A stretch of 64,000 nucleotides of DNA from Escherichia phage ManiMatter_Bas94. Under the pieces are notes generated by a model. That model worked only from the letters and a program-made list of their open reading frames with translations. It ran no database searches and was not told the DNA's origin. Shown here piece after piece: positions 44,198 through 46,228 of the stretch (positions are counted from its first letter, which is position 1; each line of letters starts with the position of its first letter). The stretch lies in sequence record PQ850617.1, one strand, 5' to 3'. A program made the position numbers and the translations under genes.

Positions 44198-46228
44198 TTA
44201 ACCTCTATTCAATGAACATTTAGGAGAATTACAATAAACTTGATTCATAGAACCAAGCGTACAACTTTCAGCATCGCGCCACGGAATCTGCTTAAAACAC
44301 CCTGAGCAGTAGCCGAGGGTTGACCACATTGCTTTGGTGAAGTCAGTGCTTCGGTTTCCGTCGAAGCTGACAACAGTTTTGCGGAGAGCTGTTCGTGATT
44401 CAGGAAACACACCTGCTTTCTCAGCAGGTTCCTCCTTTTTTGGCTTAGTTGAGATTGCAAAAATACTGTTGCTACGTTTCTCAACATAAGCATCAACAAC
44501 ATCCTCCAGAGTAATGCCTGTCTGTTTCGCTGAGGAAGGTAATACAGTCATACGACCAATCATATCTTCAGTTACACGTAAAGCAAATTCAGGACGACGG
44601 GCGTTTGTTGTATCTGTTGCTTTAATCCAGACATAACCATCTTTGATCGTAGCATTAGATACTTTCTTCTTTATATCTACAGCGCAGACTTTACAGATAT
44701 CTTCACCACGAAGACGACTGAGTTCATCATCAAACTCGTTCTCTGTTTTAACTTCACCACAGATTTCACAAACACCAATAGGAGTTTCCTCCTCTTCTTC
44801 ATCTTTAGGCTTAGTCAAACCTTCCAGACATTCAGGGTGCCAGTAGCATTGATATGCGAAGACTGCTTTAGGTGCATCCTTCCAATCAATGTGTTTATCA
44901 CAACCGCCACAATCACCATGAGAATGTGCTTCCCAGAATTTACGAGTGATAGTAACGCCATTCTTGTTGACGAAACTATCATTCATATCAAAAGGGATAT
45001 CATCATCAAAGTCAGCAGTAGTTGACTCAGGCTCCTTTTTCTCCAGAGATGGGTCAACAAAACGACCTGCTGTGATCACTAAACGAACCATAGCATTAAC
45101 TTCGGAGATACAGGATACTGTCCCACGGTAAACAATTTTAGGGTCTTTCAGGGCATCCTGATAAGCCTTAATGTCTACGTTATGAACATCACCTTCGATA
45201 TACTCTTGAGATTTCTCATCGTAGATATAACCAATCATCTTACCACGAGAAGGAACAGCACCAGCAGTTGCATAAGGGACAAACTCATGTGGTGTGATCT
45301 CCACAGTCATGTCGCGGCGAATGTCAATGTTTCGATCGCTTGCGATTTTGTTTTGACTTACCACTGCGTTTCTTCGACGAACGTCTGCCGCTGTCACTCC
45401 CGGCTTCGTGTCGTAAGGATTGCTTGTACTGCTTTTTGAGGAACTTTGATAGTTGCTTTGGCTGTAGTTGTTCGAGTAGTAATTGCCCCAACGATTGATT
45501 ACCGTAAAAACCGGAAGCTCGTGGGCGACCTCTTCAACTAGAGTCATGCTGTTGTTTGACACATCAAAGATGTATTCTGTACCAACTTTACATTCAAAGT
45601 GCTCATCAATGCGATTCTTGTGAGACCTAGAACGCTTCAGAATCCACATCAACATATCTTCTTCAGAAGCACCAAACCAATCTCTGTTACAACGTGCAAG
45701 ATGGAAAGGACGCTCTTCATTACGGATGATATGAAGACGATTATCAGAAGCATCATGCCAGATTAAGGTGAAAGCACCATCCAGCTTTTGAATAGTCTCT
45801 GCTGCACCAATAGTGTTAATAGAGTGGCAGATGTTTTCACTGTCTACCTCGAAGTTTTTACTGTCAGGTAACAGGTCTTGGTTCATCAAGGTTCCGTTAT
45901 GAACCAGAGTGATGTTACCGTGTTGGAAAGGATGGGCGTTCTTGGCGTTAACTGCACCTTTCGTTGCATGACGGCTGTGACCAACAATCCATGAAGGTGC
46001 TACAGTGTAAGCTGTTTCACCAGTGGTGTGCTTCTTGTACTCATCTTGAAGGATGAATGCGAAAGAAGGAAGTGCCTCTTTATAAGTGAAGACTTCTTTA
46101 GTGCTTTTACGCTGACCAAAGATACCAGAGGAGTGCTGTCCTCGGAATACTCCAGCATAAAAGAGTTGGTTAAATATATCTAAATCAGTGCTTGACAGAT
46201 TACCGCCAGCTAATACGATGCCACAAAT
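44198..46228 (-). CDS. Class-II glutamine amidotransferase (Ntn) domain fused to Cys-rich zinc-ribbon C-terminal domain
   Basis: Frame open upstream of track ORF; CGIVLAGGN...VFRGQHSSGIFG...VGHSRHATKG...HPFQHGNITLVHNGTL parallels PurF/GlmS N-termini; no ATG before Cys codon. Confidence 0.6.
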   Translation of the reverse strand: MCGIVLAGGNLSSTDLDIFNQLFYAGVFRGQHSSGIFGQRKSTKEVFTYKEALPSFAFILQDEYKKHTTGETAYTVAPSWIVGHSRHATKGAVNAKNAHPFQHGNITLVHNGTLMNQDLLPDSKNFEVDSENICHSINTIGAAETIQKLDGAFTLIWHDASDNRLHIIRNEERPFHLARCNRDWFGASEEDMLMWILKRSRSHKNRIDEHFECKVGTEYIFDVSNNSMTLVEEVAHELPVFTVINRWGNYYSNNYSQSNYQSSSKSSTSNPYDTKPGVTAADVRRRNAVVSQNKIASDRNIDIRRDMTVEITPHEFVPYATAGAVPSRGKMIGYIYDEKSQEYIEGDVHNVDIKAYQDALKDPKIVYRGTVSCISEVNAMVRLVITAGRFVDPSLEKKEPESTTADFDDDIPFDMNDSFVNKNGVTITRKFWEAHSHGDCGGCDKHIDWKDAPKAVFAYQCYWHPECLEGLTKPKDEEEEETPIGVCEICGEVKTENEFDDELSRLRGEDICKVCAVDIKKKVSNATIKDGYVWIKATDTTNARRPEFALRVTEDMIGRMTVLPSSAKQTGITLEDVVDAYVEKRSNSIFAISTKPKKEEPAEKAGVFPESRTALRKTVVSFDGNRSTDFTKAMWSTLGYCSGCFKQIPWRDAESCTLGSMNQVYCNSPKCSLNRG

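Follow-up and report, generated by a model that had tools for sequence, protein, structure and literature searches.

A conserved internal copy of the SSB C-terminal tip sequence in a glutamine amidotransferase of Escherichia phage ManiMatter_Bas94: a possible docking peptide

The genome of Escherichia phage ManiMatter_Bas94 (PQ850617.1) encodes, within the 64,000-nucleotide stretch analysed here (hereafter the window), a class-II glutamine amidotransferase orthologous to gp83 of Escherichia phage LAMP, which is referred to below as gp83. [quoted passage not shown] Its best explanation, to which we would give slightly less than an even chance, is that of a docking peptide of the SSB-tip type, which would link the amidoligase/ATP-grasp cassette of the phage to proteins that bind SSB tips. 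As such, a docking motif that is already known appears here at a site, and in a kind of protein, that are both new for it, and its conservation argues for a function.

The SSB tip sequence in gp83 and its conservation

The gene and the motif are located as follows, with residue numbers counted from the Cys after the ATT start codon as residue 1.

44198..46228, minus strand: amidotransferase gene, a multidomain protein of 675 residues and the orthologue of LAMP gp83 (from the translation and the LAMP annotation, 51489-53519)
46228-46226, minus strand: ATT start codon, followed by the Cys1 codon at 46225-46223; the stop codon is at 44200-44198
44990..45013, minus strand: DFDDDIPF, a short linear motif of the SSB C-terminal (SSB-Ct) type, gp83 residues 405-412 (from the translation)

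An initial annotation of the window, made from the sequence alone, had placed DFDDDIPF at 44990-45013 with DMNDSF directly after it, and had matched the octapeptide to the end of E. coli SSB. Minus-strand translation bears out the former, and 8/8 residues are identical to the E. coli SSB tip (...MDFDDDIPF). The sequence of the internal-type gp83 peptide with its motif is TTADFDDDIPFDMNDS. The conserved hexapeptide of SSB-Ct is DDDIPF (PMC5872125), and the gp83 motif agrees with the SSB-Ct consensus, including the critical Pro and Phe. Furthermore, all the literature matches listed for the string DFDDDIPF have SSB or its partners as their subject.

A homolog search covering 5.8 billion proteins identified 324 relatives of gp83; the ortholog set comprises 32 full-length sequences sharing 42-70% identity. 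Conservation of the motif in homologs had been put forward as a check in the initial annotation, and residues P411 and F412 are invariant in 32/32 orthologs, down to 42% identity. D408 and D409 are each conserved in at least 90% of the sequences, while the position after the Phe (D413 in gp83) is occupied by Asp or Glu in 27/32, giving the ortholog consensus [FL]-[DN]-D-D-[IV]-P-F-[DE]. In the alignment the motif forms an island of conservation, and the linker surrounding it is variable in both sequence and length and rich in indels, with some 10 to over 40 residues separating the preceding OB domain from the motif. Across the wider family, a strict acidic-x-Pro-aromatic pattern was found in 49/120 relatives, as opposed to a mean of 3 and a maximum of 8 in shuffled sequences. 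The pattern matches in distant homologs do not all represent the same motif, as several lie directly after a CxxC and resemble a zinc-domain element, C-x2-C-x3-I-P-W-x-D-A; the claim of conservation made here covers the orthologous clade and a handful of clear linker cases. Full identity to the host tip (8/8 residues) is present in both E. coli-infecting clades, and the cultured phages carrying this part of gp83 comprise only 96 Escherichia and Shigella phage records.

The initial annotation had allowed for coincidence, and the short length of the motif, and nothing else, would favour either a chance likeness or a recent transfer of DNA from the host ssb gene, in both cases without function. 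Given the window's own amino acid composition, the exact octapeptide is expected 6.7e-7 times and the hexapeptide DDDIPF 2.8e-4 times per window. Because the octapeptide is expected so rarely and is conserved across the 32 orthologs, coincidence is ruled out. Recent acquisition of the motif codons from the host was likewise rejected, as no significant blastn match was found in 5426 complete E. coli genomes. In a sensitive blastn search of these genomes the canonical E. coli ssb gene gave no match to the motif codons, and the best host match, of 28 nucleotides and non-significant, was to SSB paralogues in 5/5426 genomes. In these five (NZ_CP053296, NZ_CP146670 and three others) the tail codons of the SSB paralogue match at approximately 26/28 nucleotides (E=5). 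No significant DNA match was found to the phage's own tail-coding DNA either, and we place the likelihood of chance or recent transfer close to nil.

Structural setting of the motif

An AlphaFold2 model of gp83 built from 120 input sequences has a mean predicted local distance difference test (pLDDT) score of 87, with low-confidence segments at residues 243-275, 397-412 and 598-612. The following elements are distinguished, from the N-terminus to the C-terminus.

45500..46225, minus strand: glutaminase domain of the N-terminal nucleophile (Ntn) type with an N-terminal catalytic Cys, residues 1-242 (Pfam, Foldseek, AlphaFold2 pLDDT >90)
45401..45499, minus strand: low-complexity linker rich in N/Y/S/Q (NYYSNNYSQSNYQSSSKSSTSNPYDTKPG), predicted to be disordered, at the boundary of glutaminase and OB fold, residues 243-275 (pLDDT <50, poor conservation)
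45041..45400, minus strand: OB fold, with an N-terminal helix and a barrel of five strands, of which strands 3 and 4 are separated by a helix, residues 276-395
45014..45040, minus strand: spacer (SLEKKEPESTTA region), short, variable, indel-rich and disordered, holding 'KEPxST', residues 396-404 (alignment, pLDDT <50)
44966..44989, minus strand: DMNDSFVN, with D413 as the conserved acidic residue after the motif and with 'DSF' conserved, residues 413-420 (alignment, DSSP strand 417-419)
44801..44965, minus strand: first Cys/His zinc-binding domain, with invariant H436, C439, C442, H463 and C466, residues 421-475 (invariant columns, AlphaFold2)
44198-44965, minus strand: the three zinc-type domains in total, the two further ones following residue 475 and reaching residue 675

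The motif is located approximately 13 residues past the end of the OB fold and approximately 10 ahead of the zinc domain, in a segment for which pLDDT is below 50 (residues 397-412, motif included). Local disorder had been named in the initial annotation as a further point to be checked, and the motif is indeed placed by the prediction in a disordered segment outside the folded core. In the model, the local order is thus OB fold, short disordered acidic spacer, SSB tip and zinc domain, and gp83 shares with SSB a disordered tail on an OB-fold domain, with a much shorter spacer than in SSB. When residues 276-404 were modelled alone, the OB domain reached a pLDDT of 94.4 with the topology helix, b1-b2-b3, helix, b4-b5, and in a fold search of BFVD its strong matches were amidotransferase orthologues only. 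The adjacent DMNDSF, which had been noted alongside the octapeptide, is probably wrongly taken for a second SSB-like tail, its S-F-V being modelled, with rising pLDDT, as the beta strand with which the zinc domain begins. Two of the zinc domains share the element C-x2-C-x3-I-[PD]-W-x-D-A, which has a superficial likeness to the I-P-F-D of the linker motif, and a second disordered linker, rich in K/E/P, is found at residues 598-612.

The closeness of the motif to both the OB fold and the zinc domain would also suit an intramolecular regulatory tail, whereby the acidic Phe peptide would fold onto gp83's own OB fold or the adjacent zinc domains and, as a mimic of DNA or substrate, gate ligand binding or domain geometry. 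The acidic tails of E. coli SSB, T7 gp2.5 and T4 gp32 fold back on their own OB folds. Such a tail requires neither an external partner nor a free carboxylate, its internal position would be no hindrance, and the domains on either side share the conservation of the motif; in E. coli SSB, moreover, the C-peptide binds the protein's own OB domain (PMC3936761). However, the low-confidence segment is docked on no domain by AlphaFold2, a spacer whose length varies between about 10 and over 40 residues is more in keeping with a docking peptide that is free and accessible than with a fixed contact, and simple charge mimicry needs no exact SSB-Ct consensus with an invariant Pro. We therefore regard an intramolecular tail as unlikely, although a serious competitor.

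A related tail in the putative SSB of the phage

A second protein encoded in the window carries a tail related to the gp83 motif.

25575..26321, minus strand: putative SSB, a phrog_6599-family protein of 248 residues, with the tip ...KEPASTYEDDNDSPF at 25578-25598 as its true C-terminus

The initial annotation had this protein, named there as the phage SSB, ending in DDNDSPF, and this ending is recovered in the open reading frame at 25575-26321. Judged from its sequence, the protein is built like a gp2.5-style SSB and is treated here as a putative SSB only. It has no Pfam match and no sequence or profile match in the PDB, its PHROGs families (phrog_6599/862) have no annotated function, and among the GenBank records examined only PQ863256 labels it an 'ssDNA-binding protein' (ssDNA, single-stranded DNA). 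A profile search of 1.84 billion representatives yielded 192 relatives and one weak DUF669 match. Its orthologs consist of a conserved domain of approximately 210 amino acids, a variable linker and a C-terminal tip, which reads DDDIPF, DFDDDIPF, DDDVPF or DDSPF, and 91/131 remote relatives with a length of 180-350 residues end in acidic residues and an aromatic residue. In four members of the phrog_6599/862 family (P0131, P0132, P0140 and P0150), a conserved extension, APIGLQEGRxYxxxI, follows the PF tip.

The resemblance between the two proteins extends upstream of the tip, where same-genome pairs have 'KEPxST' both in the putative SSB's tail and in the linker of the amidotransferase (EPQST/EPQST and EPEST/EPEST). 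The paired sequences are given below.

LAMP / phiEco32 type: putative SSB tail KEPASTYEDDNDSPF; amidotransferase linker KEPESTTADFDDDIPF
L126 / L140: putative SSB tail EEPQSTFEEDDSPF; amidotransferase linker KEPQSTTADFDDDIPF
L127 / L141: putative SSB tail REPESTFEEDESPF; amidotransferase linker KEPESTTADFDDDIPF
L128 / L145, distant lineage: putative SSB tail IDKEPNIVLDDDIPF; amidotransferase linker IDEELTELADDVPF

When the profiles of the putative SSB and the amidotransferase were compared with hhalign, the tails alone were aligned (E=5.5e-4, probability 30%); homology of the gp83 OB domain to the putative SSB is not supported, as only the tails are paired. As the shared residues differ in their codons, recent gene conversion was rejected as the source of the likeness between linker and putative SSB tail. 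The resemblance of the tails is thus kept at the protein level and does not reflect a recent copy.

Non-terminal copies in other phage replication proteins

Copies of the hexapeptide that do not end a protein were sought in IMG/VR with the pattern DDDIPFD, which was found in at least 105 distinct contexts; the pattern forces an Asp after the Phe, and these counts say nothing on frequency relative to true termini. Among the matches listed, the Phe is followed by 1 residue in 25, by 2-15 residues in 37 and by 16-50 residues in 24, and is located deeper in 19. Several of the proteins concerned have roles in replication. Among the matches listed are SSBs of the PF00436 family with a tail extension past the motif (for example ...DDDIPFDDPYRLLWRLV). 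In gp32-like SSBs (PF08804; L011, L014, L024, L052, L075 and L089), DDDIPFD is located 24-45 residues before the stop codon in the acidic C-terminal region, while DnaB-like helicases end in ...DDDIPFDA and ...DDDIPFDPD (L106:2390-4468 and L061:4196-5668, respectively). As genuine SSBs, gp32-like SSBs and helicases carry DDDIPFD non-terminally, a strictly terminal Phe is not universal among phage replication proteins. Four amidotransferase orthologues were also among the matches listed. The deep-internal copies in portal or tail proteins look unrelated or due to chance. As further observations, PF00436 SSBs of phages and prophages (L005:12200-12712, L008, L022, L027 and others) have a conserved extension, D[DN]PYRxLWRxV, behind DDDIPF, so that the Phe is not C-terminal, and a helicase with an SSB-tip-like tail is reminiscent of the pair of tails in T7 gp4 and gp2.5.

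These proteins also bear on the remark in the initial annotation that processing would be required for a free C-terminal Phe. Cleavage after Phe412 would yield a 412-residue amidotransferase-OB fragment with a free DFDDDIPF-COOH and a zinc-domain fragment, would remove the problem of the missing alpha-carboxylate, and could be marked by the Asp or Glu that follows the Phe in 27/32 orthologs. Nevertheless, 0/120 homologs end at the motif, so no natural pre-cleaved form is represented among them, and the surroundings of the motif show no evident protease or element for autoprocessing. Furthermore, since genuine SSBs with residues past the PF exist, cleavage is not needed for non-terminal motifs. 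Processing is accordingly considered most improbable.

Proposed docking of gp83 to SSB-tip pockets

Mimicry of the SSB tail by the gp83 motif is plausible given its conservation, the chance statistics and the predicted disorder, and is strengthened by the upstream OB fold, by the extended likeness to the putative SSB's tail and by the non-terminal copies in phage replication proteins. Under this proposal, gp83 would carry an embedded module of an OB fold and an acidic tail that is SSB-like in build, and the same pockets that read SSB tips, in phage replisome proteins and/or host SSB-interacting proteins, would bind its peptide. Docking would bring the amidotransferase, together with its cassette, to replication forks or ssDNA and, as a secondary effect, the peptide could compete with SSB for shared partners. 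That the motif binds at all, which partners it has and what follows from binding are points that we infer.

Several observations weigh against docking to such pockets, the chief objection being the position of the motif. In typical SSB-Ct pockets, a 'basic lip' holds the terminal Phe by its alpha-carboxylate (PMC10164576), while the gp83 motif ends at residue 412 of 675, with an internal Phe lacking a free alpha-carboxylate. The conserved Asp or Glu after the Phe may provide a carboxylate that replaces the missing one. In the wider, more distant family, 71/120 members fail the strict pattern and at least about half are without the motif, and in distant relatives some of the pattern matches lie directly behind CxxC and may belong to the zinc domains. 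The tip residues of the putative SSB and the amidotransferase do not strictly co-vary within one genome. Moreover, the gp83 OB domain showed no sequence relation to SSB families and no membership of PF00436 in Pfam and profile comparisons, and among the residues best conserved in it (Y342, E344 and D346) are acidic ones, so that nucleic-acid binding by this domain is putative at most.

The gene neighborhood provides a further alternative. The gp83 gene belongs to a conserved five-gene cassette, of which DUF7195 is a further member and the remaining genes are the following.

42559..43752, minus strand: ATP-grasp ligase (weak Pfam matches to RimK / Dala_Dala_lig_C, LAMP gp80 annotation)
46308..47411, minus strand: Amidoligase_2 (PF12224; Pfam)
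48035..48841, minus strand: phiEco32-like COOH-NH2 ligase type 2 (PF14395)

The two Pfam matches of the ATP-grasp protein (E=3e-3 and 7e-3) are below the Pfam cut-off, but in LAMP the gene carries a ligase annotation. With PF14395, PF12224, a class-II amidotransferase and an ATP-grasp protein co-located, the set corresponds to the phiEco32-type amidoligase cassette, which was reportedly described by Iyer et al. in 2009, and it adjoins primase-helicase (39428-41218) and polymerase genes. As a rule, a glutamine amidotransferase functions as part of a complex that includes its synthase. The motif may accordingly be a docking site for one of the cassette proteins (the amidoligase, the COOH-NH2 ligase, the ATP-grasp protein or DUF7195) or serve in oligomerisation, its likeness to SSB-Ct being convergence on a generic acidic-Pro-Phe peptide; both the cassette and the usual pairing with a synthase favour this explanation, as does the confinement of the motif to part of the family. 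It leaves unexplained, however, the identity of all eight residues to the host tip in both E. coli-infecting clades, the KEPxST common to the putative SSB tail, and the recurrence of the hexapeptide specifically in the tails of phage SSBs and helicases. Like the intramolecular tail, it is judged unlikely, but well short of negligible.

The cassette has also been described in LUZ24-like phages (PMC3890496), and Lee et al. observed phage contigs in which genes for post-replicative thymidine hypermodification are accompanied by those for amidoligases and amidotransferases (PMC8989533). Both this co-occurrence and the position of the cassette beside primase-helicase and polymerase genes speak for the docking proposal. 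Taken together, OB fold, zinc domains and SSB-like peptide suggest that the cassette acts at the replication fork, either on nucleic acid or close to it. A more speculative proposal, for which we see only a slender chance, is that the cassette acts on SSB-type acidic tails, for example by amidation or extension of the host SSB tip at its Asp side chains or its terminal carboxylate, with the DFDDDIPF-D of gp83 as a tethered pseudo-substrate or assembly handle. The chemistry of the cassette is all carboxyl chemistry, with two COOH-NH2 ligases, a RimK-type ATP-grasp peptide ligase and an ammonia-generating amidotransferase. If true, the host SSB interactome would be switched off while the divergent DDNDSPF tail of the phage would still be functional. 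In a weaker version, a complex that modifies DNA post-replicatively may be brought by the SSB-like module to the ssDNA of the fork.

Comparison with known systems

The gp83 peptide resembles bacterial SSB-Ct in its eight identical residues and in its location on a disordered segment behind an OB fold. In SSB, the ssb-113 mutation is a P-to-S change and deletion of the Phe is lethal (PMC10164576), and the Pro-Phe pair and the acidic residues critical to SSB are invariant, or nearly so, in the gp83 orthologs. The two differ in that the gp83 copy is internal (412 of 675) with a spacer of approximately 13 rather than 60 residues, in that its OB fold does not belong to PF00436, and in that the carrier is an enzyme and not a DNA-coating protein.

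Among phages, T7 gp2.5, the T7 gp4 helicase-primase and T4 gp32 have Phe-terminated acidic tails, a class that more than one protein of the same phage uses to reach common partners. Similarly, the putative SSB (25575-26321) and the amidotransferase of one phage carry related tails here, but the T7 and T4 tails are at or near the C-terminus of core replisome proteins, whereas gp83 is a metabolic-type enzyme with its motif in mid-chain. The beta-clamp-binding motif and the PIP box are likewise portable replisome-docking motifs, either internal or terminal, and the gp83 peptide is, as they are, short, conserved, found in unrelated proteins and located in a disordered region; the clamp motif differs from it in both sequence and receptor. 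As to the cassette, the window holds the full phiEco32-type set in the same order beside a primase-helicase gene, and to the phiEco32-type amidotransferase no OB fold, zinc domains or SSB-like motif are attributed in the accessible literature. In the literature searched on DFDDDIPF, or on SSB-Ct and phage mimicry, no internal functional copy in an enzyme is described.

Genome maintenance in bacteria has its central recruitment handle in the C-terminal tip of SSB, which is held to function only when its C-terminus is free. If the internal copy in gp83 is functional, either some tip pockets accept an internal peptide, perhaps with the next Asp as the carboxylate, or phages use the peptide otherwise. 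The motif would furthermore provide the first concrete and testable lead on the role of the widespread phiEco32/LUZ24-type cassette of amidoligase, amidotransferase and ATP-grasp protein.

The amidotransferase gene and its start

The window region shares 99.9% DNA identity with Escherichia phage LAMP; identity is 97% with phiEco32, NJ01 and SU10, as well as with numerous other coliphages of the Kuravirus / Gordonclarkvirinae. The LAMP gp83 product is annotated as a 'putative glutamine amidotransferase'. In class-II amidotransferases the N-terminal Cys is the catalytic nucleophile, and gp83 conforms to this class (Ntn) in that its ATT-TGT start places a Cys at residue 1 of a glutaminase fold. 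The glutaminase domain matches Pfam GATase_6 (E=3e-15), as well as GATase_7 and GATase_4, and Foldseek matches it to GlmS (E=4e-12), PurF, AsnB and EgtC. The rare ATT start codon is kept in both E. coli-infecting clades (L138-L141, L143), while distant orthologs use ATG, and upstream of it are a Shine-Dalgarno sequence, AGGTGGA, and a small hairpin (AAGGGTttACCCTT). Automatic gene callers truncate gp83 to a 563-amino acid open reading frame with a TTG start (cluster P0001, 211 member sequences).

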